Shown: piece after piece, positions 1,289 through 36,707 of the stretch
How positions within the stretch are numbered: the stretch's first letter is position 1
Layout: every line of letters starts with the position of its first letter
Assembly (NCBI GenBank): GCA_022703645.1
Contig: JAKLDG010000001.1
Span: 338,814 to 402,813 of the forward strand
From: Patescibacteria group bacterium
Lineage (GTDB): Bacteria > Patescibacteriota > JACPGU01
Length of the DNA: 64,000 nucleotides
Reading direction: 5' to 3'
Translations under genes and position numbers: made by a program
Notes under the pieces: model-generated
Told to the model about the DNA's origin: nothing
Seen by the model: the letters and a program-made list of their open reading frames with translations, nothing else
The model's database searches: none

Positions 1289-1317
1289 TTGACATATTAT
1301 AATATTTATGATAAAAT
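1289..1317 (+). promoter_or_regulatory. sigma70-like promoter (TTGACA - 17 nt - TAAAAT)
   Basis: TTGACA at 1289-1294, 17-nt spacer, TAAAAT at 1312-1317, about 55 nt upstream of the ATG at 1373. Confidence 0.5.
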
Positions 1318-1372
1318 TAAAGTATAAAAATAAATACCCTAAATATATATTTTGGGGATAGGAGGAATAAAT

Positions 1373-2254: not shown

Positions 2255-2287
2255 GATCTAGAAAAACAAGTTATATTGAAATATAAC

Positions 2288-2320
2288 AAAAAGAGTTCTA
2301 TAAGAACTCTTTTTGTTTTG
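2288..2320 (+). terminator. intrinsic terminator (agagttct-ataa-gaactct + TTTTGTTTTG)
   Basis: Hairpin with T-run after the secreted-protein gene. Confidence 0.6.
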
Positions 2321-2382
2321 TGTAGATTCTGTTATAATAAGAACAATTAAACAAGAAAGAAAAAAAACAATAAAACAAGGAT

Positions 2383-3129
2383 ATGAATGAATGTAATCCG
2401 GGTTTGGTTAGATTAAATAAATTTTTATCAAAGAATAGTTTGATTTCAAGGAGAACTGCTGATAAGCTGATAATACAAGGTAAAATTACGGTAAATGGTG
2501 AAAAGATTAAAGAGCTGGGAATAAAGATTAATCCTGAAAAGGACAGTGTTTTTATTGACGGAAAAAAGATTAAAATTCAAGACGATAAAGTTTATTATAT
2601 TCTCAATAAACCTGTTGGGTATATCACAACTATGAGCGACCCAAGAGGAAGAAAAAAGGTAGTTGATCTAGTGCCGAAATACCCAAAAGTATACCCCGTA
2701 GGACGTCTTGACTATGATTCCAGTGGTCTGCTGATTCTTACAAACGATGGCGACCTAACATATAGACTAACTCATCCAAAGTTTGAAAAAGAAAAGTCTT
2801 ATGAGGTTAAATGCAGAATTATGAATTATGAATCAGGGATTATGAACGATAAAATAATTGTGGGGAAATTTTTAAAGGGAATAAGATTGAAAGAAGGGGT
2901 TGCGAAAGCAGATAATGTAAAAGTTTTAAGCCAGAAAGGCGATATAATAACATTTAATATAACACTTCATCAAGGCTGGAATAGGCAAATTAGACGCATG
3001 TGCGCTACTGTAGGTTTGGACGTGATTTCACTGAAAAGAGTAAGGATTGGTAAATTACTATTAGGAAATATAAAAGAGGGAATGTGGCAAAAAATAAATC
3101 CAAAAGACACAAAAAAGTATTTCGAATAA
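2383..3129 (+). CDS. pseudouridine synthase, RsuA/RluB family (S4 domain + PseudoU synthase)
   Basis: S4-like N-terminus (LNKFLSKNSLISRRTADKLI), catalytic region PVGRLDYDSSGLLILTNDG, and C-terminal NRQIRRM motif typical of the RsuA family. Confidence 0.85.
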   Translation: MNECNPGLVRLNKFLSKNSLISRRTADKLIIQGKITVNGEKIKELGIKINPEKDSVFIDGKKIKIQDDKVYYILNKPVGYITTMSDPRGRKKVVDLVPKYPKVYPVGRLDYDSSGLLILTNDGDLTYRLTHPKFEKEKSYEVKCRIMNYESGIMNDKIIVGKFLKGIRLKEGVAKADNVKVLSQKGDIITFNITLHQGWNRQIRRMCATVGLDVISLKRVRIGKLLLGNIKEGMWQKINPKDTKKYFE

Positions 3130-4070
3130 GAAAAAGATATCTGCTACTATTAACATTATTAATAGTAGGTGGTTTTTGTATTTTTTCACGCGATAAAGCT
3201 TATTCCAGCGCTTCCGCCAAGATTTTTTATGGTGAAAGTTTTATGAAAGAAAACGGTTCCGAAACAAAACTATCGTCTGTCGATAGCGTCGAAATACCAT
3301 TTCAAAAAGAGGGCGCAAATGAACATGTTGCTATAAAAGCGCAAACTTATATTGCAGCTGATCGCGCGACTATGACGCCATTACTTGAAAAAGATGCTGG
3401 AAAAAAGGTCCAAATTGCCAGTATCACAAAATTGATGACCGCCGTTATCACGGTTGAAAACTCAAAACTGGATGATGTGGTTACGATTAACAGCACATTT
3501 AAAGACGCTCCGGATGGCAGAATGGGGCTTTACGTGACAGAAAAAATTACAGTTGAGAATATTCTCAATGGTTTGCTTATCTCTTCTTCAAATGATGCTG
3601 CTGAAGCTCTCGCATATTATATCGGGAAAGGTAATTATAAGTCTTTTATTCAAATGATGAATACAAAAGCGGCTGAAATTGGGATGAGTAATACGCGTTT
3701 TTCGAACGCTATGGGACTTGATAATGGCGAAAACTACTCAACTCCACAAGACCTGGTATATCTAGCAAATTATGCTTTAAAGAATGAATTTATTGCTAAA
3801 ACAGTTAAAACTCAAGAAAAGAGAGTAAAGAATATTGAAGGAACAAGCACTCATTACCTGAAAACTACCGACGAATTGCTCGCTGATAAAGACTTTGAAT
3901 TTTTGGGTTTGAAAACCGGTTCTACACCTGAAGCGGGGGAGTGCCTTCTATCTTTTGCGAAAACAAAAAACGGTCATGAAATCATAACCGTTGTGCTTGG
4001 TTCTATGGATAGGTTCGGTGAAACCAAAGAAATTGTAAAATGGGTAGATGCAAACATTACTTGGGAATAA
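3084..4070 (+). CDS. D-alanyl-D-alanine carboxypeptidase (peptidase S11, PBP5-like)
   Basis: SxxK (SITKLMTA), SxN (SSSND) and KTG (KTGST) motifs. N-terminal TM anchor. Overlaps the upstream gene by 46 nt, so the start is uncertain. Confidence 0.8.
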   Translation: MAKNKSKRHKKVFRIRKRYLLLLTLLIVGGFCIFSRDKAYSSASAKIFYGESFMKENGSETKLSSVDSVEIPFQKEGANEHVAIKAQTYIAADRATMTPLLEKDAGKKVQIASITKLMTAVITVENSKLDDVVTINSTFKDAPDGRMGLYVTEKITVENILNGLLISSSNDAAEALAYYIGKGNYKSFIQMMNTKAAEIGMSNTRFSNAMGLDNGENYSTPQDLVYLANYALKNEFIAKTVKTQEKRVKNIEGTSTHYLKTTDELLADKDFEFLGLKTGSTPEAGECLLSFAKTKNGHEIITVVLGSMDRFGETKEIVKWVDANITWE

Positions 4071-4434
4071 GGTTTTTCCGCAAGTTTTTCAGTATTCCTT
4101 TTATTGTCGCGGGGAGTGTAGTTTTGGTACAAGTATAGTCACAGTATCCTAATTTAAGTAGTTCTCCCCCCTTCTTTTCAAAGGATGTGGGTATAATAAT
4201 TCTTACTTTAGGGTTTTTTTCGCGGATTTTTTCAACTAATTCTTTATAACGAAATCCGCGAATAGCGTCCTTTGAGGTGTACTTCAAAACGATAATGTCA
4301 TACTTAAATTCTTCCAAAACGCTTATATCCTTATTACTTCTTTTGAAAAAGATATCATGTTCCTTTAGTGAGATTGCATAGTGGGCTCGATAATAGTCCT
4401 CTCGTTCAACAATCAAAATCCCTTTCTTTCTCAT
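4057..4434 (-). CDS. pseudo-receiver (REC-like) domain protein lacking the phospho-acceptor Asp
   Basis: CheY-like layout (ILIVERED ... IIVLKYTSKD ... RIIIPTS ... KLGY), but Lys sits where the phosphorylated Asp is expected. Confidence 0.4.
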   Translation of the reverse strand: MRKKGILIVEREDYYRAHYAISLKEHDIFFKRSNKDISVLEEFKYDIIVLKYTSKDAIRGFRYKELVEKIREKNPKVRIIIPTSFEKKGGELLKLGYCDYTCTKTTLPATIKGILKNLRKNLIPK

Positions 4435-4526
4435 AGATATTATACCCCCCTTGTTTTTTTTAAATGAGCATCAAATAAAAAATAAAAAACCAGCATTTTG
4501 GTTTTATTTGTGTTATGTAATTTATA

Positions 4527-5219
4527 TTACAGGTTTTCTTGCCAAATGTCAAGAGCAATCCTTGCTGCCTCCTGTTCCGCAGCTTGTTTTGAAGACCCGG
4601 TTCCATCGGCAATCTTTTTATCTTCAAGATAAACACCCATTACAAAAACTTTTGCATGGTCTGGGCCCGATTCTTTTTCAACCTTATAGATTGGTGTAAT
4701 ACCTACTTTTTCCTGGGCTATTTCCTGAAACTTCGATTTTGGATCATAGTAAAGTTCCTTTGAAATAATCTCCGGTAAATAGGGAATTAAATACTTTTTA
4801 ATAAATTTACCCGCTGCCTCATACCCTTGATCAAGATATATTGCGCCAAGTACTGCCTCAAAGGTATTAGCAAGTATTAACTCTCTTGCTTTTCCAGTAG
4901 ACCTTGATTCTCCGCGCGATAGGAGTAGGTGGCTTTCATAACCAAGTTCCTTTGCTATTTTTGAAATCATAGTTCCTCTTACCAATGCCGCGCGCCAGTT
5001 TGTCAATTCTCCTTCAGGATTTGGGTAATTATTGTATAAATAGTCTGTAACAATTAATTCCATACATGCATCGCCAAGAAATTCAAGCCTTTCATTATGA
5101 TCAAGCTTGAAATCTTTATTTTCATTCAAATAGGATCTATGTACAAAAGCCTGCTGGAGTAAATCTTGATTCTTAAATTTTATACCTATTTTCTTTTCTA
5201 TTTCATTTAAATTGCTCAT
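4527..5219 (-). CDS. rnc: ribonuclease III
   Basis: ERLEFLGDA signature and a C-terminal dsRBD. Terminator hairpin with T-run downstream on the minus strand (about 4478-4506). Confidence 0.9.
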   Translation of the reverse strand: MSNLNEIEKKIGIKFKNQDLLQQAFVHRSYLNENKDFKLDHNERLEFLGDACMELIVTDYLYNNYPNPEGELTNWRAALVRGTMISKIAKELGYESHLLLSRGESRSTGKARELILANTFEAVLGAIYLDQGYEAAGKFIKKYLIPYLPEIISKELYYDPKSKFQEIAQEKVGITPIYKVEKESGPDHAKVFVMGVYLEDKKIADGTGSSKQAAEQEAARIALDIWQENL

Positions 5220-5306
5220 TTGAAATTCGCTTTGCTGAAATTCTAAGAAATTGAGGAAATTCTAATATCTAATTTCTCCAATTTCTTTTAATTTCTATTA
5301 ATTTTA

Positions 5307-6152
5307 TTATTTTAGTCTGCCGATATCTTCTACTGCCTTTTTGAATAAATCTACTAAGTTTGGATAATCTAGGTGATTCAAAACCTCTCCTTCTTCCACC
5401 CATTTAATTTCTTTAATATGAGCTTCCGGATTAATTATAGTATTTACCTGAGTAGTTCGTATAAGATAGAAGTGCACGCTTTTTTTGATAACCTCTTCGC
5501 CGCTTTTATCAGTAAATTTAATTTCGCCAACTTCACCAAGAATTTCAGCCTCAGTTATACCTGTTTCTTCTTGAATTTCTCTTACAGCTGCTTCTTGCCA
5601 AGTTTCTCCTTCTTCAACTTTACCTTTTGGAAAAGTCCATTTATCATAAGGGTTTTTGACAATTATAAAAAAGTTTTTCCCATTTTCTACGCGGTATATT
5701 ATTCCACCAGCGCTAATTATCAAGTTTTCTTCTTCATACTTACTACTTGCGCGGTAAATTGTTCCCAATACACCATTAATGAACTTACCACTGTTTTCTC
5801 CGCCAAATTCCTTACCAAGCTCCACAGCCTCATTAATAACCGCTTTTGGAGGCACTTCTGCATCATAAATCAACTCATAAATACCAATTCGCAATATAGA
5901 GCGGTCAATAGTGGCAATCTGTTCAAGAGGCCATTCGGGAGCAGTCTTTTTGATTAAGTCATTGATCTCTGATATTTTTTCCACCGTTCCTTTTATAATC
6001 TTACGGCAAAATTCCTCATCAACCTTAAAACCGGAATTTTCAATATTCCGTTTTAAAATTTCAGCAATATCTCTTTCTTCATCAAAATCCCACTCGTAAA
6101 GAGATTGTAAAACAACCATTCTTGACTGATGTCTAATAGATAGGTGAGACAT
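5307..6152 (-). CDS. nusB: NusB antitermination factor fused to a C-terminal Nudix hydrolase domain
   Basis: N-terminal 135 aa match NusB (VDRSILRIGIYEL..., INEAVELGKEFGG, FINGVL). The C-terminal 140 aa carry the Nudix box GKVEEGETWQEAAVREIQEETG. Confidence 0.85.
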   Translation of the reverse strand: MSHLSIRHQSRMVVLQSLYEWDFDEERDIAEILKRNIENSGFKVDEEFCRKIIKGTVEKISEINDLIKKTAPEWPLEQIATIDRSILRIGIYELIYDAEVPPKAVINEAVELGKEFGGENSGKFINGVLGTIYRASSKYEEENLIISAGGIIYRVENGKNFFIIVKNPYDKWTFPKGKVEEGETWQEAAVREIQEETGITEAEILGEVGEIKFTDKSGEEVIKKSVHFYLIRTTQVNTIINPEAHIKEIKWVEEGEVLNHLDYPNLVDLFKKAVEDIGRLK

Positions 6153-6160
6153 TTTATTAA

Positions 6161-6373
6161 TTATTTAGTTTTTGTTTTTACTTTACCGCTAGCAATACCG
6201 GGTTTCTTCATTTGTCTGCCATTATAAGTACCGCAAACTTTACACACTTGGTGTGATATTTTTGGTGACTTACATTTTGAACAAATAGAAACGCCTGCTA
6301 ATTTTACTTTGATATTCTGCCCTCTGCGACTCGCAGTACGGGACTTACTCATACGTTTTTTGGGTTCTGCCAT
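6161..6373 (-). CDS. rpmF: 50S ribosomal protein L32
   Basis: MAEPKKRMSKSRTASRRGQN... with CxxC...CxxC, typical of L32. Confidence 0.8.
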   Translation of the reverse strand: MAEPKKRMSKSRTASRRGQNIKVKLAGVSICSKCKSPKISHQVCKVCGTYNGRQMKKPGIASGKVKTKTK

Positions 6374-6511
6374 AGCGTCAGGATCGCGTTAAACATTTCC
6401 AGCGATCTTATTCTCCTTGATTAAATTAATATTCTGTTAACTAATACATTTTACAATAAAATAAAACTTAAGTAAACCCCTTAGAATCCATTTGTATTTT
6501 ACGCTTTTAGT

Positions 6512-6546
6512 AAAAAAACCGCCTTTTGGGGCGGTTGGGGTTTTTA
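6512..6546. terminator. bidirectional intrinsic terminator
   Basis: Hairpin aaccgcc-ttttgg-ggcggtt with an A-run upstream and a T-run downstream. Confidence 0.5.
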
Positions 6547-6578
6547 ATTCCAATTTTCTCAAAACTATTTTACGTTTT

Positions 6579-7145
6579 CTAAGCTCTTTTTGCAATATTC
6601 TTAGGGTTATTCATATCCCGACCCCACGTTGATGGATTTGATTCTATATAAGAATAAATTTCATCGTAAGATTTTTCATTGCGGATAATGTGTTCATAAT
6701 AGTTGCGTTGCCAGATACGATTTTCAAATGGTATTAATATATTTTGTTTAACCCCATCAATGCATTTTTTCGTTGTTAGTGATTTAAAACGTTGAATTAT
6801 TTGCGGCAATGACAGTTGTTTTTCTGTAGGGGCAAACCCCCGTGTTTGCCCGTTTTTAATTGGGCGGACACAGGGGTCCGCCCCTACGATACAGATAATC
6901 AAATGTATATGATTTGGCATAACAGAAAATATATCTACCTCGATATTTGAATAATACTTTGGGATTTCTTCTATCGTTTGGAAAATTATTATCCCAATAT
7001 CATTCAATCTCATCCCTCCATCAACAATTTCTCCGAACAAACACCCTCTATCTTGTGTACATATTGTAATAAAATAATCTCCGGGTTCGGAATAATCATA
7101 ACCTTTTATTCGTATTGACCTTCTGTTTTTGTTTTCTTTTTACAT
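6579..7145 (-). mobile_element. IS200-like Y1 HuH transposase of the REP-associated (RAYT) type, probably inactivated
   Basis: NHIHLII HuH motif and C-terminal YY catalytic region. The N-terminus (YDYSEPGDYFITICT...LFGEIVDG) matches its paralog at 20.9 kb. The ancestral ATG (7145-7143) is followed immediately by an in-frame TAA; the intact ORF only restarts at TTG 7040. A 66-bp GC-rich palindromic element sits in frame at 6824-6889. Confidence 0.65.
6824..6889. repeat. REPIN-like GC-rich palindromic element (two inverted REP hairpins with GTAG-containing termini), in frame inside the RAYT gene
   Basis: CTGTAGGGGC-[gggcaaac/gtttgccc hairpin]-gtttttaatt-[gggcggac/gtccgccc hairpin]-GCCCCTACGA. 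Far GC-richer than the flanks. On the minus strand it encodes VGADPCVRPIKNGQTRGFAPT. Confidence 0.7.
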
Positions 7146-7160
7146 TAGAACAATTGAGAA

Positions 7161-10070
7161 CTATCTCACAAAATTTACCAATCGATTTTTGACGTAAATT
7201 ATTTTTTTATAGTTTGTTGAAATTTCCTTGAATTTCTCCGTATCTTGAATGACTTTCAATGCGTCTTCCTCGCTCGCATCAAAAGGCATCAGAATATTAC
7301 CGCGGTGTTTGCCGTTTTCTTGAATTACTATTTCAATCATATCTTCTTTTATTTTTTCCGGGTCGTGTTTTGGCCAAGTAAATTTTCCGCTAAAAATACT
7401 TTCTTCAAATCCGAATTGTTGCCAGATTTCCTCCGCGATATGAGGGCAAATAGGAGATAGAAGCAGAATCAAAACCATGTATGGCTGCGGGTAATTATAT
7501 AACAGATCTTTTTTGCTAATTAAAAAGTTGGTAAATTCCATTAATGTCGATACGAGAGTGTTTAAGTGCAGGCGATCCAGATCTTCATTAAATTTCTTGA
7601 TTGTTTTATGTGTCATCACTTCCAGTTCCGTTTCTCCAATTTCAAAAGAATCGGTAATTATTTTTGCCGGATCTTTTTCTTCAACCCGAGGCGCAATTTC
7701 TTGGCCAAGATTCCAGACTTTATTTAGAAATCTCGAAACACCCTCTATTCCTTGGCTGCTCCATGCCGCATCTTGCTCGAAAGGACCGATGAACATTTCA
7801 TAAGCGCGGGCGGTATCAGCACCGTATTTTTCGACAATTTCATTCGGGTTTACTACATTTCCAAGGGATTTACTCATCTTTTTCCCATCTTCTGCTAATA
7901 TCATTCCATGATTAATTCTTTTGGCATAAGGCTCAGAAGTTGGCACAAGCCCAAGATCATGAAAGAAAATATTCCAAAATCTAGAATAAAGCAGATGAAG
8001 CGTGGTATGTTCCGGTCCGCCCTCGTAAATATCCACCGGCATCCAATATTTCAACTTTTCAAAATCAGCGAACTGTTTGTCATTATGAGGATCGATGTAG
8101 CGCAAGAAATACCATGACGAACCTGCCCAGTTCGGCATAGTATCTGTCTCTCTTACAGCAGGTCCATTGCACTTTGGGCAAGTCGTATTTACCCAGTCTG
8201 TAATCTTTGCAAGAGGGGATTGCCCGTCCTCGGTTGGTTCGTAATTTTCCACTTCAGGCAATAGCACAGGCAATTGATCTTCCGGTACAGCAACTTCACC
8301 GCAATTAGGACAATATACAATTGGGATAGGCTCGCCCCAATAATGTTGGCGTGAAAATATCCAGTCGCGCAGATGGTAGGTGGTTATAAAATCACCAAGC
8401 TTCTCATCTTTTAATTTTTGGGTAATCTTTTTTCGAGCTTCCTCAGAGCTTAATCCGGTAAAATCTTGCGAATTGATTAGTACACCATCTCTGGTATACG
8501 CCGGGATTTTCGCGCTCATTTTTTCCTGCCAGATGCCAACCTCGGCATGCGTCATATTAGCATAATTCAATTGCGATTCATCAAGCCAAATCACATCGTG
8601 GTCATCTTTTTCTTTTTGCGAAATATCTTCTTGTGTGTGGTCGACTAATTCAAATAGCACAGCAGTGGTATAAGAAATTCGATTTAAATCTTTGTGATTA
8701 GCAAAATACTCGGTTCGCGTTTGACCGAAAAGAACCCTGTCTAATTTTAAGTTTGTAAACCCAGTTTCTTCGGCAACTTCTCTTTTTGCAGCAGTTACCA
8801 CGTCTTCGCCTTCTTCAATGCCACCCATTGGAAAAGTCGTCCAATCAAAGTTTTTCCATTTAAGTCCAAGATATTTTCCAGTTTTTGGATCGCGAACTAT
8901 GGCATGAATATTTTTTCTTTCAACGGTCTTTTTACCCTCAACTGGCGGGTTTCTTTCATCAATAATATTTGGTACGACTACTTCTTCGATTTTAATTCCA
9001 TATTTAACGGCAAAAGCATAGTCGCGTGTATCGTGAGCGGGAACTGCCATGATAGCGCCTGTACCATAATCTGCAAGCACATAATCAGCAACCCAGACCT
9101 CTACTTTGCGTCCATTTATAGGGTTTATAGCAGTAATACCTTCTAATTTTACGCCCGTCTTTTCCTTATCCTCAACCATTCTTTCAATATTTGACTTTTT
9201 CTTTGATTCATTAATGTATTCCTTGACCTCTTCTAAATTCGAGATTCTATCTTCTAAATTCTTTATGTATCCCGATTCCGGTGCCAAGACAATATATGTA
9301 CAACCAAACAACGTGTCTACCCTAGTAGTGAAAACCTTTATACTAGATTCTAAATTCTTTATTCTAAATTCTATTTCGCTTCCTTCAGATTTTCCTATCC
9401 AGTTTTCCTGCATGAGTTTTACTCTTTCCGGATAATCAACATTTTTTAGCCCTTCGAGTAACTTATCTGCATAAGCTGTAATACGCAACATCCATTGATC
9501 AAGTTCTTTTTTACTTGCGGCAGTTCCGCATCTTTCACATTTTTCATCGATTACTTCTTCATTGGCTAGCCCTATTTTGCAGCTTGGACACCAGTTAATC
9601 GCCATTTTCTTTTTGTAAGCAAGGCCATTTTCATAAAATTTTAGAAAAAACCACTGTGTCCATTCGTAATAAGCCGGATCAGTAGTATCGATTTCGCGAG
9701 ACCAATCAAAAGAATAACCAAGACTTTTTTGTTGTTTCGTAAAATTTGCAATGTTTTGAGCGGTAGCAACCGACGGGTGGATTTTATGCTTTATTGCGTA
9801 GTTTTCAGTGGGCAGACCAAAAGCGTCCCATCCAACCGGAAGCATCACGTTGTAACCCTCGAGCCTTTTCTTGCGCGCAATAATATCAGAAGTAGTCTGA
9901 CCTCGAAGATGCCCCATATGCAGACCATCTCCGGATGGATAATTGAACTCAAACAACATATAGAACTTTGGTTTTTTATCAAAGTCTTTCGCATGATATA
10001 GATCGGGAATCTTTTCCCAGATATCCTGCCATTTTTTTTCGATTTCGTGAGGATTGTAGTTGGTTGACAT
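7161..10070 (-). CDS. leuS: leucyl-tRNA synthetase with an inserted Nudix hydrolase domain
   Basis: HMGH and KMSKS class-I motifs, CP1 editing-domain signatures (TTRVDTLFG, AHDTRDYAF), LeuRS-like termini. About aa 383-515 carry a Nudix box, GGIEEGEDVVTAAKREVAEETG. Confidence 0.9.
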   Translation of the reverse strand: MSTNYNPHEIEKKWQDIWEKIPDLYHAKDFDKKPKFYMLFEFNYPSGDGLHMGHLRGQTTSDIIARKKRLEGYNVMLPVGWDAFGLPTENYAIKHKIHPSVATAQNIANFTKQQKSLGYSFDWSREIDTTDPAYYEWTQWFFLKFYENGLAYKKKMAINWCPSCKIGLANEEVIDEKCERCGTAASKKELDQWMLRITAYADKLLEGLKNVDYPERVKLMQENWIGKSEGSEIEFRIKNLESSIKVFTTRVDTLFGCTYIVLAPESGYIKNLEDRISNLEEVKEYINESKKKSNIERMVEDKEKTGVKLEGITAINPINGRKVEVWVADYVLADYGTGAIMAVPAHDTRDYAFAVKYGIKIEEVVVPNIIDERNPPVEGKKTVERKNIHAIVRDPKTGKYLGLKWKNFDWTTFPMGGIEEGEDVVTAAKREVAEETGFTNLKLDRVLFGQTRTEYFANHKDLNRISYTTAVLFELVDHTQEDISQKEKDDHDVIWLDESQLNYANMTHAEVGIWQEKMSAKIPAYTRDGVLINSQDFTGLSSEEARKKITQKLKDEKLGDFITTYHLRDWIFSRQHYWGEPIPIVYCPNCGEVAVPEDQLPVLLPEVENYEPTEDGQSPLAKITDWVNTTCPKCNGPAVRETDTMPNWAGSSWYFLRYIDPHNDKQFADFEKLKYWMPVDIYEGGPEHTTLHLLYSRFWNIFFHDLGLVPTSEPYAKRINHGMILAEDGKKMSKSLGNVVNPNEIVEKYGADTARAYEMFIGPFEQDAAWSSQGIEGVSRFLNKVWNLGQEIAPRVEEKDPAKIITDSFEIGETELEVMTHKTIKKFNEDLDRLHLNTLVSTLMEFTNFLISKKDLLYNYPQPYMVLILLLSPICPHIAEEIWQQFGFEESIFSGKFTWPKHDPEKIKEDMIEIVIQENGKHRGNILMPFDASEEDALKVIQDTEKFKEISTNYKKIIYVKNRLVNFVR

Positions 10071-10483: not shown

Positions 10484-10613
10484 AAATATTAATTAATTTT
10501 CAATTTTACAATTCTCAATTTCCAATCAATTCTCAATGATTCAATTTCTAAATGCTATCGCAAAGCGATACCTACAATGAAAATTGCAAAATTGAGAATT
10601 GAAAATTTCCTTA

Positions 10614-22343: not shown

Positions 22344-24521
22344 ATGTATTTGTATTTTGCATTTACAGGATTATTTAATGCTATAGTTAGCACTTTATTA
22401 GGTATTTTTGTATTTTTCAATAATTCAAAAAACAATATTAATCGCTCGTTTGCTCTTTTCTGTTTATTTTTTACGATGTGGTCTGCCGCATATATATTTT
22501 GGCCATTATCGCAAAACGCTGAAGGTACACTTTTGTCTTTTAGATTACTGCATATTGGCGCTGCTTATGTTTCTGTTGCTTATTTACATTTTGTTTGTAA
22601 TTTCCTGGATGTATATAAGCAAAAAAAAGTAATAGTTATAATTGGATATATTTTAGCATCTATACTAGTTCCATTTATTTTCACTCCATATTTTATTGCT
22701 GATATGGTTCCAATATTCTCAATGCGCTTTTGGGCAGTTCCTGGGATATTGTACCATTTTTATCTTGTGCACTTTTTTGGATATTTTGCATATTCGTCTT
22801 ATTTGTTATTTAAAAGTTATAAAAAATTATTGGGAGTAAAAAAGGTCCAAATTCTATATATTTTAGTTGGTTTTGTTTTGGCTTTTTTCGGGGGATCAAC
22901 AAACTATTTTTTATGGTATAAAATTAATATACCTCCTTATCTCAATATTCTTGCTTGTTCATTTGTAGTATTTACTGCCTACGCGATTGTAAAGACGCGG
23001 TTTTTAGACATCAAATTCGTTCTTCGTTCCTCTTTTGTTTACATTTCATCTCTTATTACAATTATTATCCCTGCAGTATTAATTAAGTTTATTGTTGGTG
23101 GGGAATCAGTTTTTAAAGCAACTGGATGGATTGATCTAATCATTGTTATTTTTGCCATTGCTGTATTTCCAAAAGTTAAAGAATATTTTTACAAAATCGC
23201 GAATAAGTATTTTTTCTCATCACTCTATGATAGCGCCGAAGTGATTGCAGACCTGTCTGATAAACTGCGATCAACCCTTGATATAAATAAAATTGATGAC
23301 TATATTACGAATGCTTTAATCCAAGCATTTCATTGCAAAGCGATTGGAATTTTGAATTATTCCAGAAGAACCGGGGACTACAACCTTGTCCATAATAAAG
23401 GGTTTGCGTTCAAGGGAAGAAAGAGATTTCTCGGCGATAAGGGATTGCACAAAAAATATGTTATGAAAGATGAACCTTTCCTGACATCCGAAATTAGAGA
23501 TAATCGCAAATATAAAAAGACGGTTTCTGTATTGGAAAAATTTGACGTAGAAGTTTTAACGCCGTTAAACGTTAAAGATAAGACAATCGGCCTTATCGCA
23601 ATCGGAGCAAAAGAATCCGGTGATTCATATAATCAACAGGATATTGAGCTTTTGGGAATTGTCAGCGCGCAGTCGGCAATTGCTATTGAAAACGCTATTT
23701 TATATGAAAAAACACGCAGATTTACAAAAACTCTGCAAGTAAAGGTTGATAATGCAACGGCTCAAATTCGCCACAAGAATGAAGAATTGAAAAAACTCGA
23801 TAAGCTCAAAGACGAATTTATTTCCGTCGCCAGCCATCAGCTGCGAACTCCGCTGACCGCCACGCGCTGGGCGCTGGAATTTCTGATTAAAGATAATAAA
23901 GGAAAACTCAACCGCAAACAGCTTGAGAGCGTTCATGAGCTGGAAGACACAAATTCAAAACTTATAAAACTCGTCAATTCACTTCTGAATGTCTCCCGTA
24001 TTGACGAGGGACGCCTTTCTATCACGCCAGTACCAACTGACATAGTTGCCGTGATGAAAGAAATCATGCATGAATTTGAACCGATTGCGCGCCACAAGAA
24101 TTTGAAAGTTATCACACACTATGATAAATTGCCAAAAATCAAATTTGATCCTGTTGTTATTAATAAAGCGATACATAACTTCGTTTCAAACGCGATAAAA
24201 TATAATAAAGACGAAGGCCGTCTTTGGATAAATGTCGAGAAATATGATAAAGATAATCTGGTTATCAAGGTTCGCGACGAGGGAATCGGAATACCAAAAG
24301 CCGAGCAGGCAAATCTATTTGCGAAATTTTACAGAGCATCTAATGCTGCTACTTCAAATACCGAAGGAACCGGACTTGGACTTTATATTGCCAAAAGCGC
24401 CGTAGAAAGCTCCGGAGGAAAGGTTTGGTTCGAATCAAAAGAAAATGAAGGGACAACTTTCTTTGTGACATTACCACTGAAAGGCAGTAGGGCGAAGAGA
24501 GGAGAAAAGAGCCTGGTCTAA
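22344..24521 (+). CDS. membrane sensor histidine kinase (multi-TM sensor + GAF + HisKA + HATPase)
   Basis: AGGAGGG RBS. About seven N-terminal TM helices, a GAF-like region, H-box SVASHQLRTPLTA, and G-boxes GTGLGLYIAKS. Confidence 0.85.
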   Translation: MYLYFAFTGLFNAIVSTLLGIFVFFNNSKNNINRSFALFCLFFTMWSAAYIFWPLSQNAEGTLLSFRLLHIGAAYVSVAYLHFVCNFLDVYKQKKVIVIIGYILASILVPFIFTPYFIADMVPIFSMRFWAVPGILYHFYLVHFFGYFAYSSYLLFKSYKKLLGVKKVQILYILVGFVLAFFGGSTNYFLWYKINIPPYLNILACSFVVFTAYAIVKTRFLDIKFVLRSSFVYISSLITIIIPAVLIKFIVGGESVFKATGWIDLIIVIFAIAVFPKVKEYFYKIANKYFFSSLYDSAEVIADLSDKLRSTLDINKIDDYITNALIQAFHCKAIGILNYSRRTGDYNLVHNKGFAFKGRKRFLGDKGLHKKYVMKDEPFLTSEIRDNRKYKKTVSVLEKFDVEVLTPLNVKDKTIGLIAIGAKESGDSYNQQDIELLGIVSAQSAIAIENAILYEKTRRFTKTLQVKVDNATAQIRHKNEELKKLDKLKDEFISVASHQLRTPLTATRWALEFLIKDNKGKLNRKQLESVHELEDTNSKLIKLVNSLLNVSRIDEGRLSITPVPTDIVAVMKEIMHEFEPIARHKNLKVITHYDKLPKIKFDPVVINKAIHNFVSNAIKYNKDEGRLWINVEKYDKDNLVIKVRDEGIGIPKAEQANLFAKFYRASNAATSNTEGTGLGLYIAKSAVESSGGKVWFESKENEGTTFFVTLPLKGSRAKRGEKSLV

Positions 24522-24525
24522 AGTA

Positions 24526-24560
24526 AATTAAAAATTAAAAATCAAAATGTAAAATGACAG
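24526..24560. repeat. AT-rich repeat (AAATTAAAAATTAAAAATCAAAATGTAAAATGACA family), left flank of the 4HB gene
   Basis: Matches inverted copies at 24921-24985, 26872-26985, 28725-28765 and 30576-30685. Confidence 0.55.
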
Positions 24561-24919
24561 ATGCAAATTTTAAAAATGAATTTAAGAAAAGATTGTACTC
24601 GTTCGTTTTACGATTAATTAAATATATAAATAGTCTCCCAAGATCACAATCAAACGATGTTATAGGAAAACAACTGTTAAGAAGTGGTACGAGTATATTG
24701 GCTAATTTTATAGAAGCTAATTCAGCCAGCAGTAAAAAAGATTTTACGAACTTTTTTAATCATAGCTTAAAATCTGCCAATGAATCAAAGGTTTGGTTAA
24801 CACTTTTCCGCGATACAAACCCTATAAACAATGAGAATGTTTTTTTGATAAAAGAACTTTGCGAGATTGCAAACATCTTAGCATCAAGTATATTAACTTT
24901 AAAAGGAAAAAAGAAATAA
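24554..24919 (+). CDS. four-helix-bundle protein (23S rRNA intervening-sequence protein family)
   Basis: Family-like helices (GKQLLRSGTSILANFIEANSASSKKDF ... SANESKVWL). Bracketed by inverted AAAATGTAAAATGACA-type repeats; the start codon lies inside the left repeat. Confidence 0.65.
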   Translation: MTDANFKNEFKKRLYSFVLRLIKYINSLPRSQSNDVIGKQLLRSGTSILANFIEANSASSKKDFTNFFNHSLKSANESKVWLTLFRDTNPINNENVFLIKELCEIANILASSILTLKGKKK

Positions 24920-24920
24920 T

Positions 24921-24985
24921 TTTACATTTATTATATGTCATTTTGATTTTTGACATTTACATTTTACATTACATATTTTAACCTT
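24921..24985. repeat. AT-rich repeat (TGTCATTTTGATTTTTGACATTTACATTTTACATT), right flank of the 4HB gene, upstream of cysS
   Basis: Near-identical to 26941-26985. Confidence 0.55.
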
Positions 24986-25047
24986 TAAATTATCGATAAA
25001 TTATGCTAATATTACTATAATTTACAAAAACTAAGCAAACCGACACT

Positions 25048-26397
25048 ATGATTAAAGTATATAATACACTTTCAAGGTCTAAAGAAGAATTCAAACCTAT
25101 CGAAGAAGGTGAAGTTGGCATCTATTCTTGTGGACCTACGGTTTACAACTTTGTTCACATTGGGAACTTAAGAGCATATATTTTTGCTGATATATTGCAC
25201 AGAACTTTCCTTTACAACGGATATAAGGTGAAACACATAATGAATATTACTGATGTTGATGATAAAACGATTCGTGATTCTCGATCCAATGGGTTGACAC
25301 TAAAAGATTTTACAGACAGATATACTACGAGTTTCTTTGAAGATTTAGAAAAATTAAATATTAATAAAGAAGAATATATCTTTCCACGCGCAACTGAAAA
25401 TATTGATGGTATGGTGAAACTAATCAAGAAGCTTTTGGATAAAGGGTTTGCTTATAAAGCAGAAGATGGATCAATATATTTTGCTATTTCGAAATTCAAA
25501 GACTATGGTAAACTGTCCGGTGTCGATTTTGAACGCGACACTAAATCGAGAATATCAAATGATGAATATGCAAAAGATGAGGCGCATGATTTTGCTCTTT
25601 GGAAGGCTTGGGACGAGAAAGATGGGGATGTTTTTTGGGAAACAGATATTGGTAAAGGTAGGCCCGGTTGGCACATAGAGTGTTCAGTAATGTCTGAGGA
25701 TAACCTTGGACAGCCCTTTGATATTCATACTGGTGGAATTGATCTTATATTCCCTCATCATGAGAATGAGATTGCGCAATCTGAAGCTGCTAATGAAAAA
25801 ACTTTTGTAAATTATTGGATGCACAATGAAATGTTAATGGTTGATGGACAAAAGATGAGCAAGTCACTAAAAAACGATTACCGACTGAATGATATTATTG
25901 AAAAAGGTTATGAACCCTTAGTTTTTCGCTATTTAATGCTTTTTACGGGATATAATCAGAAACTTAACTTTACCTGGGATGCTCTAGAAGCGGCAAAAAA
26001 TGGTCTGGGCAATCTAAAAAATAAGATTTTATTATTAGGAAATGATATAGGGGAGGTTAGCGCAAGTCTTGTTGATGATTTCAAAAATGAGATTAACGAT
26101 GATCTTAATACTCCGAAGGCTCTCGCAGTCCTACAGGAAGTCTTGAAATCAGATATTACAAATGCGGATAAGCTCGCAACGGTTCTTGATTTTGATAAAG
26201 TTTTAGGATTACGGCTCGATGAAGTAAAATCAGAAACCATCGATATTCCGGAGGATGTGATTAAATTTGCAGAAGATAGAAAAAATGCTAAACAGGAAAA
26301 AAACTTTGAGCTTGCAGATAGTCTTCGCGCAAAGATAAGCGAAGCCGGATATGAGGTAGAAGATACGAAAGATGGTTATAGGGTTGTGAGAAGATAG
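25048..26397 (+). CDS. cysS: cysteinyl-tRNA synthetase
   Basis: HIGN and KMSKS motifs; CysRS-specific GRPGWHIECS zinc/cysteine-binding region. Confidence 0.9.
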   Translation: MIKVYNTLSRSKEEFKPIEEGEVGIYSCGPTVYNFVHIGNLRAYIFADILHRTFLYNGYKVKHIMNITDVDDKTIRDSRSNGLTLKDFTDRYTTSFFEDLEKLNINKEEYIFPRATENIDGMVKLIKKLLDKGFAYKAEDGSIYFAISKFKDYGKLSGVDFERDTKSRISNDEYAKDEAHDFALWKAWDEKDGDVFWETDIGKGRPGWHIECSVMSEDNLGQPFDIHTGGIDLIFPHHENEIAQSEAANEKTFVNYWMHNEMLMVDGQKMSKSLKNDYRLNDIIEKGYEPLVFRYLMLFTGYNQKLNFTWDALEAAKNGLGNLKNKILLLGNDIGEVSASLVDDFKNEINDDLNTPKALAVLQEVLKSDITNADKLATVLDFDKVLGLRLDEVKSETIDIPEDVIKFAEDRKNAKQEKNFELADSLRAKISEAGYEVEDTKDGYRVVRR

Positions 26398-26464
26398 ATA
26401 CATTTGTAATTTGTCATTCAAATCCATTATGCTATAATCAAGCTATTAGAAATAAACAAAAACT

Positions 26465-26857
26465 ATGCCAACAAAAACCATAAAGAAAAAAAAGAAAGTC
26501 GCCATACTTGAAGATGATAAAATGCTGAATAAATATCTTGCGGCGAGTTTTGCGAAAGAGGGGACTTATGATGTTTGCGCGGCGCTAAATGGGGAAGAGG
26601 GGATAGCGATGATAAAAAAAGAAATGCCTGATCTAGTGCTTTGTGATATCATAATGCCAAAGAAAAACGGTTTTGAGGTTCTTGAAGCGGCAAAAAAAGA
26701 CGCGAAAACGAAAAAAATAATTTTTATAATGTTATCAAATCTTTCCCAAGAATCTGACGTGAAACAAGCAAAAAAAATGGGGGCAAAAGATTTTTGGCTG
26801 AAAGTAGATTTCGATACGGAGGCGATAGTAAAAAAAGTTAAAGATATTTTAAAATAA
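26465..26857 (+). CDS. stand-alone response regulator receiver (CheY-like)
   Basis: EDD acidic pocket, phospho-acceptor LVLCDIIMP, conserved Ser and Lys positions; no output domain. Confidence 0.8.
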   Translation: MPTKTIKKKKKVAILEDDKMLNKYLAASFAKEGTYDVCAALNGEEGIAMIKKEMPDLVLCDIIMPKKNGFEVLEAAKKDAKTKKIIFIMLSNLSQESDVKQAKKMGAKDFWLKVDFDTEAIVKKVKDILK

Positions 26858-26871
26858 CTTTTTTAACTTAA

Positions 26872-26985
26872 ATAAAAAATTAAAAATCAAAGTGCAAAAA
26901 ATTGGGGTTCCTGCGGAATGATATCTAATTTTTAATTTTACATCTGTCATTTTACATTTTGATATTTACATTTTACATTGCATGG
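26872..26985. repeat. AT-rich repeat cluster (AAATTAAAAATCAAAGTG ... TGTCATTTTACATTTTGATATTTACATTTTACATT) upstream of pilB
   Basis: Same family as 24526-24560 and 24921-24985. Confidence 0.55.
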
Positions 26986-27020
26986 GATAATTATTAAAAT
27001 AAAAACAAAACTTTTTAATC

Positions 27021-28724
27021 ATGTTAATTGACGAGAAAAAACTAAAATCTATTCTAATAGACGCTGGAATAGTTGACGAGGCTGCTTGGGAAGATGTGAT
27101 AAAAAACGCTCACAGATTGGAGGTCTCTCCTGAAGATATACTCCGTCAGAAAGACATTATTTCCGGTCATCTTTATTATGAAATATTGGCGAAAGGCTTG
27201 GGAGTAAAATACGTAAACTTGAAGCGCCTCGAGGTTGATGAAGGAGTTCTCGATATTTTCAATGGCGACACTGTTAATAAGTACGGCGCTATTCCATTCG
27301 AGATTTCAAAAGAAAAAGGCTTGGGCAGAGCAAAACTGAAGGTTGCTTTTACCAAACAATGGGACAAGCAGATCTTAAGAACTTTGCAAATTAAAGCAAA
27401 AAGAAAAATCGAGCCTTATTTGACAGACGATATCAGTTTCCGCTCAATATTTGTTTATTACAAAAAAGAAGTCGCCGAAAAACTGAAAGTTCTTATTGAT
27501 AAAAAATCTCACGATCATACACAGTGCGAGGACTGTTTTGATCTTCTTATGGAATACTGCTACTACACCAGACCTTCCGACATTCATGTCGAAGAATTTG
27601 CAAATAGCGGTGTGGTAAAATTCCGTATCGACGGTTTTCTCCATGATGAATTTGAAATGGCGCCGCAATTGATTCAAAAGCTGGTTGAGATAATCAAAAA
27701 ATCTTCTGAAACCACTACCGACGAAGACAATCAAACTGACGACGGAAGATTTAGCGTAGAGGTATTCGATGAAGAATTAGCTTTCCGTGTTTCAATAATA
27801 CCGACTTATTTTGGTGAAAAAGTTTGTCTCAGAGTTCTTGATGATTCCAAACAAAAATTATCTTTGCACGATCTGGGTTTCAACGACTCGGATATTGTGA
27901 TGCTGAAAAAAGAATTCGAAAAACCTTATGGACTAATATTAATCAATGGTCCAACCGGCAGCGGCAAATCTACGACACTTTATTCTGTTTTGAAATTTTT
28001 GAATATTGAAGGCACCAGTATTGCGACAATCGAGGATCCGGTGGAATATCCGATCAAGCATATTAATCAAAGCCAAGTGGATGAGGAAAATGGGTTTACC
28101 TTTTCGCGAGGGTTGAAAGAGCTTCTACGCCAAGATCCTGATATTGTGGTGATTGGCGAAATACGCGACAATGAGACTGCTAGCATCGCCGTAAACGCCG
28201 CTCTGACGGGTCATATAGTGCTATCAACTATTCATTCGAATACTGCCGTAGGGACGATTTCAAGACTGGAGAATATGGGAATTCCAAACTATCTTCTATC
28301 CCCAACGCTCGACTTGGCGATTTCGCAAAGATTGATAAAGAAAATGTGTATTTATTGCCGGGAAAGTTTCACACCGGAGAAAAAATACCTTGATAAATTG
28401 GATCGCGATGTTGGGGTTTACGCATCTCTCGCAAAACTGAAAAAAATGGGGCTGATTAGTTATAAAACCTACAAAGACATTATTTTATTCAAAAACCATG
28501 GCTGTCCAAGATGCGGGGGCAAAGGTTTTACCGGTAGAATCGGTGTATTTGAAATTTTGAATAGCAACAAAGACATTCAAGAAATGATTTTGACCGGTAA
28601 AAGTGAATCACAGATCGCAAAACATGCCGAAAGCCAAGGAATGCTGACGATGTTTGAAGATGGACTTTTGAAGGCTCTAAACGGCATGACAACGATTGAA
28701 GCAGTAATAGATGTGGTCAGGTAA
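27021..28724 (+). CDS. type IV pilus / type II secretion assembly ATPase (PilB/GspE family)
   Basis: Walker A GPTGSGKST; GEIRD; His-box LSTIHSN; tetracysteine CPRCGGKGFTGRIGVFE; N-terminal GSPII_E_N-like domain. Confidence 0.9.
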   Translation: MLIDEKKLKSILIDAGIVDEAAWEDVIKNAHRLEVSPEDILRQKDIISGHLYYEILAKGLGVKYVNLKRLEVDEGVLDIFNGDTVNKYGAIPFEISKEKGLGRAKLKVAFTKQWDKQILRTLQIKAKRKIEPYLTDDISFRSIFVYYKKEVAEKLKVLIDKKSHDHTQCEDCFDLLMEYCYYTRPSDIHVEEFANSGVVKFRIDGFLHDEFEMAPQLIQKLVEIIKKSSETTTDEDNQTDDGRFSVEVFDEELAFRVSIIPTYFGEKVCLRVLDDSKQKLSLHDLGFNDSDIVMLKKEFEKPYGLILINGPTGSGKSTTLYSVLKFLNIEGTSIATIEDPVEYPIKHINQSQVDEENGFTFSRGLKELLRQDPDIVVIGEIRDNETASIAVNAALTGHIVLSTIHSNTAVGTISRLENMGIPNYLLSPTLDLAISQRLIKKMCIYCRESFTPEKKYLDKLDRDVGVYASLAKLKKMGLISYKTYKDIILFKNHGCPRCGGKGFTGRIGVFEILNSNKDIQEMILTGKSESQIAKHAESQGMLTMFEDGLLKALNGMTTIEAVIDVVR

Positions 28725-28897
28725 GGGTCCAATTTTTAATTTTATAATTTTTAATTTTTAAAATTGTCTAAAAAAACACGTACCAAAACCAAAACTTCAA
28801 CCATAACTGGTGTTCAAATGGGGCTTCTCATTTCGACTATTTTTATTATAGTTGGACTTTTTTATGCTGTTTTTAGCTTTTTTCAATAAAATAACAG

Positions 28898-30548: not shown

Positions 30549-30575
30549 AGTTTTATTATTATATCATAAAAACAT

Positions 30576-30685
30576 ATCAAAATGCAAATATCAAAGTGTA
30601 AAATGACAAATTAAAATTAAAAATGTATAATATGCCAAAGGCATACCAAAATTTTACATTTTGATTTTTAAATTTTAAATTTATC
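30576..30685. repeat. palindromic AT-rich repeat unit (GTGTAAAATGACAAATTAAAATTAAAAATG ... CAAAATTTTACATTTTGATTTTTAAATTTT) with a central tatgcc-aaa-ggcata hairpin
   Basis: Both arms match the AAAATGTAAAATGACA family. Lies between divergent genes (the PspC-domain gene and xth). Confidence 0.55.
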
Positions 30686-31450
30686 ATGAAGATTATTTCT
30701 TTCAATATTAACGGCATCAACTCGGCCATCAAATATGGTTTGCGGGATTTTATATCTCTAGAAAATGCCGATATCTACTTGTTCCAAGAAGTAAAAAATT
30801 CCTGGGATACTATTGATGACTCTTTGCGGAAAATTCCGGGTTACGAAACATATTTTTACCAAGCAGCAAAAAAAGGATATTCCGGACTTCTTGCATACGT
30901 GAAAACGAAGAACAAACCAATCGGATACAAGGAGGGTATAGGGTTTAGGGTTATAGACGAACAAGCGAGAGTGCAGACATTAGAATTCCAGGATTATTAT
31001 TTAGTTAATACCTATCTACCACATTCAGGAAGGGAACTTGAGAAACTTCCATTCAAACGTGAAGTAAACGAAAAATTCCTCGAATACTGTGAGTCTTTGA
31101 AAAAGAAAAAGCCACTTATAATTGCAGGGGATCTGAATGTTGCGCACAAAGATATTGATCTCGCCAATCCTCGCGCCAATATGGGAAACGCCGGATTTAC
31201 GACGGATGAGAGAGATTTTTTCGATAAATTCTTATCCCACGGATATATCGATACATTCCGCGAATTTGTAAAAGAAAATGGCCACTATACCTGGTGGAGC
31301 TGGCGGACAGGGGTACGCGAAAGAAATATCGGTTGGCGCATTGATTATTTTCTCGTCTCTGAAAATATTTCAAAACGAGTGAAAAAGAGTTGGATTCTGA
31401 AAGACATTCTCGGATCCGATCATTGCCCGATAGGATTAGAAATCCTGTAG
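30686..31450 (+). CDS. xth: exodeoxyribonuclease III (AP endonuclease)
   Basis: ISFNINGI; YTWWSWRTG ... WRIDYFLVS; GSDHCPI. The stop codon TAG lies inside a CTGTAGGGGC REP-like terminus. Confidence 0.9.
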   Translation: MKIISFNINGINSAIKYGLRDFISLENADIYLFQEVKNSWDTIDDSLRKIPGYETYFYQAAKKGYSGLLAYVKTKNKPIGYKEGIGFRVIDEQARVQTLEFQDYYLVNTYLPHSGRELEKLPFKREVNEKFLEYCESLKKKKPLIIAGDLNVAHKDIDLANPRANMGNAGFTTDERDFFDKFLSHGYIDTFREFVKENGHYTWWSWRTGVRERNIGWRIDYFLVSENISKRVKKSWILKDILGSDHCPIGLEIL

Positions 31451-36029: not shown

Positions 36030-36707
36030 TTGTTTATAATTATATCCATGAAATTAAAAAGATCATTTTTTAATCGCGATACAAATATAGTTGCGCAAGA
36101 GCTTCTCGGCAAAAAAATTGTCCGGGTTCTGCCTGATGGCAGTAGAATTGAGGCTATTATAACCGAAACCGAAGCTTATCATGGATTTGATGATAAAGCC
36201 TCTCACGCAAGCCGCGGTAAAACTGAAAGGAATAAAGTGATGTTCGATAAGGCAGGGTTGGTTTATGTTTATTTAATCTATGGAATGCACTATTGTTTGA
36301 ACTTTACAACAATGGGAAAAGGGTTTCCAGCAGCAGTACTGATTCGAGCTGTTGCTCTCAAAATCCCAAATCATAAATCCCAATGTCCAAACAAATCTCA
36401 AACCCGAAATTCCAAGTTTAAAAATTTAGATTTTGAAAATTATTTAAAAATTACAAAATTAAAAATTAAAAACTTAACTCAAATAAACGGTCCTGGCAGA
36501 ACCTGTAAAGCGCTCCAAATTGATAAATCTCTTTATGGCGAAGATTTGGTTGCCAGTAATCATATTTGGATCGAACCTGTAGAAACACAGATTCGTGTGT
36601 CTAAAAAAATTATCTCATCAAAACGTATAGGAGTTGATTATGCGGGTGAATGTAAGAACTGGGAATGGAATTATAAAGTAGATGCGAAAGCGATAATATT
36701 GTGCTAA
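36030..36707 (+). CDS. mpg: DNA-3-methyladenine glycosylase (Mpg/AAG family) with an AT-rich in-frame insertion
   Basis: ETEAYHG, ASHASRG, NKVMFDKAGLVYVYLIYGMHYCLN, AVLIRA. A low-complexity insert of about 40 aa (NHKSQCPNKSQTRNSKFKNLDFENYLKITKLKIKNLTQI) lies between conserved blocks. Confidence 0.85.
   Translation: MFIIISMKLKRSFFNRDTNIVAQELLGKKIVRVLPDGSRIEAIITETEAYHGFDDKASHASRGKTERNKVMFDKAGLVYVYLIYGMHYCLNFTTMGKGFPAAVLIRAVALKIPNHKSQCPNKSQTRNSKFKNLDFENYLKITKLKIKNLTQINGPGRTCKALQIDKSLYGEDLVASNHIWIEPVETQIRVSKKIISSKRIGVDYAGECKNWEWNYKVDAKAIILC

Follow-up and report, generated by a model that had tools for sequence, protein, structure and literature searches.

Palindromes of the rRNA intervening-sequence type, with and without a four-helix-bundle gene, between protein genes of Patescibacteria

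We analyzed a 64-kb stretch of DNA from a Patescibacteria group bacterium (the window; 38% G+C), in which an open reading frame (ORF) for a four-helix-bundle (4HB) protein is framed by inverted AT-rich arms. This gene-bearing unit, called element A here, belongs to a family of imperfect palindromes that also occupies hairpin tips in 23S rRNA genes. What is new is that the palindromes form a defined and conserved family, that they occur in several phyla, and that their usual home is between ordinary genes. We consider it probable that they are a selfish element family of the intervening-sequence type, which spread long ago within and between phyla and is tolerated as a processable hairpin in transcripts. 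The window has at least three copies, one gene-bearing and two empty (elements B and D; Table 1).

The ORF at 24554-24919 (+) encodes a protein of 121 residues that was assigned to the 23S intervening-sequence protein family with scores well above the curated cutoffs, as the original prediction made from the sequence alone had proposed. It matched PF05635 with 66.5 bits (cutoff, 33.8; E=2.8e-18; residues 9-109 of 121) and TIGR02436 with 79.4 bits (cutoff, 24; E=2e-22). The ORF is flanked by a histidine-kinase gene (stop at 24521) and by cysS (start at 25048). The inverted arms around it (24523-24575 and 24920-24972; 53 nt, 72% complementary) pair in the minimum-free-energy fold of positions 24515-24990. 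The start codon falls within the conserved arm core AATCAAAATGTAAAATGACAGATG, and the inverted partner follows the gene, both as predicted. In the full form of the element, the 4HB start codon and the first ~10 codons lie inside the left arm. Comparison with loci L205 to L210 identified AAAATGGAAAATGACA as the canonical 4HB start of the family. In the window, the canonical ATG at 24547 is directly followed by TAA, and a 1-nt insertion puts the next ATG, at 24554 (in ATGACA), in frame, such that the protein begins with MTDANFKNE instead of MENDNVNFKNE. The right arm lacks exactly one unit, a deletion shared by about 10 of 51 partner arms at other loci. The 4HB gene itself has neither an evident promoter nor an evident ribosome-binding site.

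The start codon lies within the 20-mer core AATCAAAATGTAAAATGACA, of which the window has two other copies, at 26945 (-) and 30589 (+), if up to 2 mismatches are allowed. The resulting three matches compare with 0.04 expected in the window, and none of 100 shuffles reached three. A hidden Markov model (HMM) of the family arm, trained on other genomes, matched the window at 24525-24574, 26927-26980, and 30577-30626 (E from 5e-8 to 6e-9), and codons 5-9 of the 4HB ORF are homologous to the inner segment of the B and D arms (AAATTAAAATTAAAAAT). Of the additional copies listed in the original prediction, those at 26872-26985 and 30576-30685 were thus confirmed by core and HMM, while that at 28725-28765 is a weak half-arm devoid of core or fold. 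The stretch 28725-28775 has no TGACA core and no family HMM match; it was found at E=0.029 with an HMM trained on the window, and its fold z-score is +0.16. Calling the copies near-identical was an overstatement, as arm-to-arm identity within the window is 71-94%. Element D, whose end lies 3-4 nt ahead of the xth ATG (30686), has fold z-scores of -3.0 and -2.7 on the two strands. No further arm copy was detected at HMM level in the remaining 58 kb, and the repeats of the window thus consist of a 6-kb cluster and one diverged relative at 10484-10613.

Each arm is built of ~54 nt of phased 7-nt units (AAAATNN) around a core ATCAAAATG(G/T)AAAATGACA. The consensus derived from 124 distinct copies is AAATTtAAAATTTAAAAATCAAAATGTAAAATGACAATGTAAAATTTAAAAATT, and its information content falls sharply to zero beyond the edges. 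Arm length varies between arms by whole 7-nt units.

We determined the distribution of the family by an exact scan for ATCAAARTGTAAAATGACA in one genome per GTDB species, which returned at least 119 stretches (L-numbers label loci). Most of them are from Patescibacteria, in many classes. About 30 are in records labeled Omnitrophota, Planctomycetota, Nitrospirota, Nitrospinae, WOR-3, Chloroflexi, Bdellovibrionales, "Gammaproteobacteria" bins, and a Pacearchaeota bin. Those labeled Planctomycetota include a 1.17-Mb Phycisphaerales contig, and the Chloroflexi stretch has flanks of 60% G+C. Full palindromes were also present in records labeled as other than the Candidate Phyla Radiation (CPR), including Planctomycetota, Omnitrophota, and Nitrospirota. 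Mis-binned CPR DNA is an unlikely source of these copies, given that the genes downstream of them have GGAGG ribosome-binding sites of the ordinary kind. Across the carrier loci (928 kb), the arm HMM found 236 arms, among them 69 convergent pairs mostly with loops of 0-40 nt, indicating that the typical element is 110-150 nt long. There was not a single arm match in 80 CPR loci (853 kb) picked solely by their cysS homologue. Carriage is therefore sporadic, yet carriers have many copies. Rfam had no family for the palindromes of the window and of 37 loci, and no paper on the family, or on copies of it between genes, was present in the limited literature collection searched.

The connection to the intervening sequences of rRNA that the original prediction drew from the 4HB gene was borne out by the palindromes themselves. 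In the 23S rRNA gene of L100 (Zambryskibacteria), the same palindrome is found at large-subunit rRNA model positions ~141, ~286, ~583, and 1218, each of which is a consensus hairpin tip. We take three of these four positions to be helices 9, 25, and 45, the classical intervening-sequence sites. Further palindromes lie inside the 23S genes of L059 (Moraniibacteriota), L011 (Saccharibacteria), and L023 (Brennerbacteria). At the classical sites, CPR 23S genes are known to harbor many non-intron inserts that are short (<200 bp) and uncharacterized, and PF05635 ORFs have been found in CPR 16S and 23S inserts (PMC11270868). Taken together, these data directly support the assignment of the arm family to the same kind of element as the short intervening sequences at CPR 23S hairpin tips. 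The palindrome-carrying 23S genes of L100 and L023 also contain group I introns (L100, 137-508 and 1779-2052; L023, 1108-1402).

Element A shares its layout with the 23S intervening sequences of Coxiella (helix 45) and Leptospira, namely, a PF05635 ORF in the loop of a long stem formed by inverted repeats. The Coxiella intervening sequence is cut out by RNase III; tandem heptamers GACAGAT lie just upstream of its S23p ATG, and no usable ribosome-binding site is left after cleavage (PMC4990558). The window arm has AAAATGACAGATG at the place corresponding to these heptamers; heptamer repeats directly before the ATG and a poor or absent ribosome-binding site are thus common to both. Similarities also include a sporadic distribution with inferred horizontal transfer, as well as the presence of family members at the presumed tips of helices 9, 25, and 45. 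Unlike 23S intervening sequences, the window copies lie between protein genes, most copies are gene-less palindromes of ~120 nt, and the arms are conserved across phyla. The window contains the stem with its optional S23p/4HB ORF but no insertion at an rRNA helix tip; it has no rRNA gene, and all its copies are between protein genes. ORF-less 23S intervening sequences occur in Salmonella.

The window 4HB protein has 4,138 homologues at E<=1e-10. The best 120 of these are all at least 69% identical to it and come from many CPR classes, whereas cysS homologues of the same lineages are ~55% identical. We compared ten independent contexts of the 4HB gene (the window, L054, L205, L206, L207, L210, L211, L217/L231, L223, and L228). 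The left arm covers the ATG in all ten, and a right arm after the stop was detected in 7 of 10 scanned loci (E<0.1), one contig ending before this arm. In all ten, the 4HB gene has the same orientation as both neighbors and is wedged between the stop of one and the start of the other. None of the ten copies of this subfamily is inside rRNA. The association with 4HB paralogs was therefore complete from the side of the gene (10/10) but not from that of the palindromes, most of which are gene-less; empty elements occur in 8-kb pieces that have no 4HB gene. An early estimate that the palindromes rarely occur with 4HB genes was an artifact of the scan pattern, which demanded the TGT that makes the canonical start ATG-TAA and was thus biased towards empty elements. 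In L103 and L051 (Kuenenbacteria), ~27 nt of the 5' coding end (NKFKKKLY) are fused to ~12 nt of the 3' end, with normal arms outside. This form is an internal-deletion intermediate that links gene-bearing and empty forms, and empty forms thus arise at least partly by internal deletion.

We next consider the position of the elements relative to genes, based on crude ORF calls (frames of 90 aa or more, read from the first ATG). Tandem genes flank 128 of the 147 elements or half-elements that could be classified; 9 are flanked by convergent and 7 by divergent genes, and the other 3 are within ORFs. About half of them have an arm edge between -3 and +4 nt from the stop of the gene upstream and 0-7 nt (mode, 5-6) from the ATG of the gene downstream, and the stop of the upstream gene is frequently the element's own TAA. 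Among 472 element-free spacers at the same loci, the median length is 82 nt, and a length of 5-7 nt occurs only 7 times. In L054 (Terrybacteria; 1221-7813), six successive spacers of an ~8-kb operon each hold one element, one of them with a 4HB gene. The orientation of empty elements relative to transcription is weakly biased (26 versus 12, P=0.03). Intrinsic termination was rejected as a general explanation, since the arms are devoid of G+C stems and D lies between divergent starts. Window genes adjoining elements have no recognizable Shine-Dalgarno sequence (25040-25050, 26455-26467, 27010-27023, and 30676-30688).

Both the protein and the arms are conserved by selection. Between elements, the proportion of nonsynonymous differences in the 4HB gene (pN) is 0.10-0.23 and that of synonymous differences (pS) 0.69-0.90, synonymous sites being saturated; dN/dS is ~0.1 where computable. 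Judging from these substitution patterns, the 4HB protein is under purifying selection and functional. Noncoding arm sequence of these same elements shows 74-78% identity, compared with 32% for the adjacent flanks, which indicates that the arms are constrained at the nucleotide level. At the first variable base of the unit, G is opposed to T across the two arms 148 times, versus 55 times for the same base, which would give a G-A or U-C mismatch every 7 nt; no strand bias relative to the transcription of the flanks was seen. The arms thus appear to combine conserved AAAAT blocks with the avoidance of a long perfect palindrome.

In the reading that we favor, the element would have spread anciently across phyla as selfish DNA and would have survived in places where its transcript is tolerable, namely, the hairpin tips of rRNA and the spacers between cistrons. 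In read-through transcripts, the arms would pair into an imperfect A-U hairpin, and RNase III, whose gene rnc is present in CPR bacteria, may cut the element out or cut at it, by analogy with classical intervening sequences. As the 4HB gene has no evident expression signals and is always co-oriented with its neighbors, it would be expressed from host read-through transcripts. Its protein may act on the arms, in the maintenance or the spread of the element.

A number of results weigh against this reading. We found no target-site duplication, as direct repeats of 2-5 nt at any offset gave match rates of at most 16% over 62 elements, and no transposase or reverse transcriptase was seen adjoining an element. 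A search of 2.9 million viral contigs (IMG/VR) did not yield the core and thus gave no sign of phage carriage. Each exact 4HB protein is in one genomic context only, and identical proteins are never at two loci. Together with the saturation of synonymous sites, this means that no recent transposition is documented. The small mobile cassette of the original prediction is supported in an evolutionary sense, given the bursty carriage, the ten unrelated contexts, the presence in several phyla, and the deletion intermediate. At the RNA level, element B folds with z-scores of merely -0.6 and -1.25 on the two strands. Agreement at variable positions is lower between the two arms of an element (0.388) than between arms of different elements (0.480), and 0 of 3,000 shuffles gave a value as low. 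There is no bias for G-U over C-A on the transcribed strand (77 versus 106; 75 versus 73). Anti-correlated arms without a wobble bias indicate that selection is not simply for an RNA hairpin. Lastly, strong arm conservation and a fixed gap of 5-6 nt to the downstream ATG would suit a cis-element useful to the host equally well. RNA-level selection on the arms was itself rejected, as they are anti-correlated instead of covarying and show no G-U-compatible excess. In strain comparisons, every contig encoding the exact window 4HB protein has the gene context of the window. An orthologous empty site for comparison was not found among the 80 cysS-homologue loci, the nearest of which (69-79% identity) are not syntenic.

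The proposal can be extended. The classical intervening sequence would then be the rRNA face of a single cross-phylum family of 7-nt repeats that lives mainly in intercistronic spacers. Its arms would serve as processing or leaderless-start punctuation kept as an imperfect hairpin, and the 4HB protein, as a pentamer of the kind reported for homologues, would recognize them, in an as yet unrecognized protein/repeat system for spread or transcript processing. We regard this extended version as conceivable but doubtful. A rival explanation sees domesticated intercistronic punctuation, with host-selected processing hairpins at which polycistronic transcripts would be cut after the stop and a few nucleotides before the ATG to yield near-leaderless mRNAs, in organisms that rarely rely on Shine-Dalgarno sites, the 4HB protein being their partner in trans. 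The tight fit of arm edges to stops and starts, so different from the length of element-free spacers, would be expected from it, as would the filling of nearly all spacers in the L054 operon, the purifying selection on the arms, and the lack of Shine-Dalgarno sequences in the adjoining window genes. CPR bacteria retain rnc (PMC12641178). They also keep YchF, reported to promote leaderless translation. We nevertheless find this explanation unlikely, because most CPR loci are element-free, and the hairpins can thus be no general requirement. Moreover, downstream genes in Planctomycetota keep a normal Shine-Dalgarno sequence at the normal distance, the same element is found in rRNA as well, and the placement data come from crude ORF calls.

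The arms might instead act on DNA. Because of the 7-nt period, TTTACA and TACATT are set exactly 17 nt apart, and it could be that phased TTTTACA units make the element a portable cassette of outward sigma-70-like promoters (TTGTCA/TTTACA-17 nt-TACATT) at both ends, with starts at or near the adjacent ATG. Such sites are TTTACA-17-TACATT at 26951-26979, TTTACA-17-TAAAAT at 26972-27000 (upstream of pilB), TTTACA-17-TAAATT at 30653-30681 (5 nt before the xth ATG), and TTGACA-16/18 at 24950. There are 43 promoter-like sites against 25.5 +/- 5.9 expected, arm edges lie most often 5-6 nt from the ATG, and the TGTCA core resembles the -35 box of the one clear promoter of the window, TTGTCA-16-TGCTATAAT (26411-26438). 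We judge a promoter function quite improbable all the same. In about half of the terminal units, the second base of the -10-like hexamer is G (TGAATT, TGCATT, and TGATTT), promoter-like matches arise in any AT-rich repeat, and cysS has a better promoter of its own downstream of A (24993-25021). Promoters are expected neither within rRNA helices nor between most cistrons of one operon, as in L054, and they would leave the conservation of the whole 54-nt arm across phyla unexplained. The original suggestion of a shared regulatory module retains some ground from the nucleotide-level purifying selection on the arms, the outward sigma-70-like hexamers, and the end of elements 5-6 nt before the downstream ATG. 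A further possibility, which we rate as very improbable, is that the phased AAAAT units would be an array bound by an oligomer of the 4HB protein or by another factor, the hairpin being irrelevant. It would account for the conserved sequence and phase of the blocks, for the variable and anti-correlated positions in between, for the lack of a strand-specific wobble bias, and for arm length changes in whole 7-nt steps. Empty elements in 8-kb pieces that have no 4HB gene do not fit with it, and the sites at rRNA hairpin tips argue for a role of transcript structure. The possibility that would have undone the prediction, simple low-complexity AT-rich sequence without a common origin, was refuted by the enrichment of the core, by arm HMM E-values as low as 1e-12, and by a sharp 54-nt consensus in more than 120 copies, including in a genome of 60% G+C, even though spacers in a genome of 38% G+C are AT-rich and the short motif AAAATGTAAA alone is barely enriched in the window (37 versus 27 expected).

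Other small repeat systems were compared with the arm family. Rickettsia palindromic elements, which Ogata et al. reportedly described in 2000, are said to be palindromes of ~100-150 nt in reduced genomes, with no known transposase. They resemble the arm family in occupying intergenic sites, RNA genes, and in-frame sites in protein genes, the last of which would have its counterpart in an insert in the window gene mpg. The comparison, by description only, also reveals differences, as the Rickettsia elements are from one genus and have no associated protein gene, unlike the arm family with its gene-bearing form and its spread across phyla. The Correia elements of Neisseria and the enterobacterial REP, BIME, and ERIC sequences are small intergenic inverted repeats that are co-transcribed with their neighbors and lineage specific. 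Correia elements carry promoters, their hairpin RNA is cut by RNase III, and they have a TA target duplication. REP sequences have RAYT transposases and a GTAG/CGTC tag, whereas the arm family shows neither tag nor target duplication, and its AT-rich 54-nt consensus differs from the G+C-rich palindromes of 20-40 nt that define REP/BIME. As in miniature inverted-repeat transposable elements, there are terminal inverted repeats and many dispersed copies, but target-site duplications are absent. A longer, gene-bearing form with the same ends occurs, as does the deletion intermediate; the only gene of this form codes for the 4HB protein, which has no known transposase activity. The 4HB fold family includes the Avd proteins of diversity-generating retroelements. 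The window protein matches the Avd model NF033474 with 17.7 bits only, below the equivalog cutoff of 80, and no reverse transcriptase domain is present among the genes listed within ~10 kb; template and variable repeats were not searched for.

23S intervening sequences and their 4HB ORFs have been known since ~1990, and where they come from, whether they move, and what the protein does are long-standing questions (PMC4990558). A 2024 survey of CPR rRNA genes left short non-intron inserts uncharacterized (PMC11270868). If our family assignment is true, these inserts gain a searchable sequence definition, and spacers between cistrons, perhaps also coding loops, are colonized by the same element in several phyla. 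With matched forms that have conserved arms, some gene-bearing and some empty, binding of the arms by the 4HB protein and cutting by RNase III would become testable. For the annotation of CPR genomes, element-filled spacers should not be mistaken for promoters or terminators of the usual kind, and assemblies may break at them.

Table 1. Positions of the elements, their parts, and related features (window coordinates unless a locus is named)
Feature	Position	Strand	Remarks
Element A, complete, gene-bearing (left arm, 4HB ORF, right arm)	24519-24985	+	occupies most of the spacer between the histidine-kinase stop and cysS
Left arm of A	24523-24575	+	7-nt units and core ATCAAAATGTAAAATGACAGATG; family HMM E=5.5e-8 (24525-24574)
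Right arm of A	24917-24975	-	degenerate; exactly one 7-nt unit fewer than the left arm
Element B, gene-less palindrome in the response-regulator gene/pilB spacer	26864-26985	-	inverted relative to A and D; HMM E=1.1e-8
Long arm of B	26927-26981
Short arm of B	26868-26899
Mini hairpin of B	26908-26918		TTCC-TGC-GGAA
Weak half-arm directly after the pilB stop	28725-28775	-	AT-rich 7-nt units; membership doubtful
Element D, gene-less palindrome between divergent pspC and xth	30568-30685	+	HMM E=5.6e-9 and 0.0045
Long arm of D	30577-30626
Central G+C hairpin of D	30631-30645		TATGCC-AAA-GGCATA
Short arm of D	30651-30682
Diverged relative of the same design	10484-10613	-	fills the spacer of two minus-strand genes exactly
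In-frame AT-rich insert in mpg (36030-36707)	36360-36487	+	possible remnant of a sister element family
Cargo-bearing palindromes	L077 3977-4057; L110 5360-5484; L039 1606-1745; L056 4680-4784; L061 1996-2086; L049 2963-3054		similar motif by eye in L091

Genes further along the window are those for a response regulator, pilB, tspO, a liaF-like gene, pspC, xth, and radA. The diverged relative at 10484-10613 has arms of TGAAAAT/TGAGAAT 7-nt units and a central TATCGC-AAA-GCGATA hairpin, and its fold z-scores are -4.1 and -4.2. Its matches to the arm HMM are below threshold, and since such a palindrome escapes the HMM, the family is wider than our census. The AT-rich segment noted in mpg is real and in frame. 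In an alignment of 14 Mpg proteins, the site of the insert varies between no extra residue at all and several tens of residues of low complexity (PNxKSQ-type peptides). The insert was rejected as a member of the arm family, as it has no arm HMM match and no fold (z=+0.5). Its DNA has an exact 16-mer, AAATCCCAATGTCCAA, in common with the start of the 4HB element of L021, and we retain it as a possible sister-family relative that looks like an element-derived insertion in a coding loop. In L021 (3900-4400), a second 4HB subfamily (MSNSKNYKYDLEDR...) is enclosed by an inverted repeat of another kind, whose period is 9 nt (AATTATTCT / AATTGACCT), which suggests that there are several 4HB subfamilies, each with its own arm type.

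Short G+C hairpins with loops of 3-5 nt are frequent at the loop centers of the palindromes (CCCGCGAAGCGGG, TCCCGCGTTAGCGGGA, and GTTCCGCTGAAAGCGGAAC; window 30631-30645, L067, L105, L006, and L037), a hint that the RNA form matters. Several palindromes share a structured-looking loop cargo (GGGAATT..., ...GGTAAATTCCC, with internal G+C hairpins) that has no Rfam match and may be a small RNA riding in the element. In three unrelated genomes (L010, L024, and L112), a G+C-rich repeat (CCTTCGAC..GCTCAGG...GAGCAAAGTCGAA) is located upstream of truncated arms and abuts them; it may be another repeat family that nests with the arm family.

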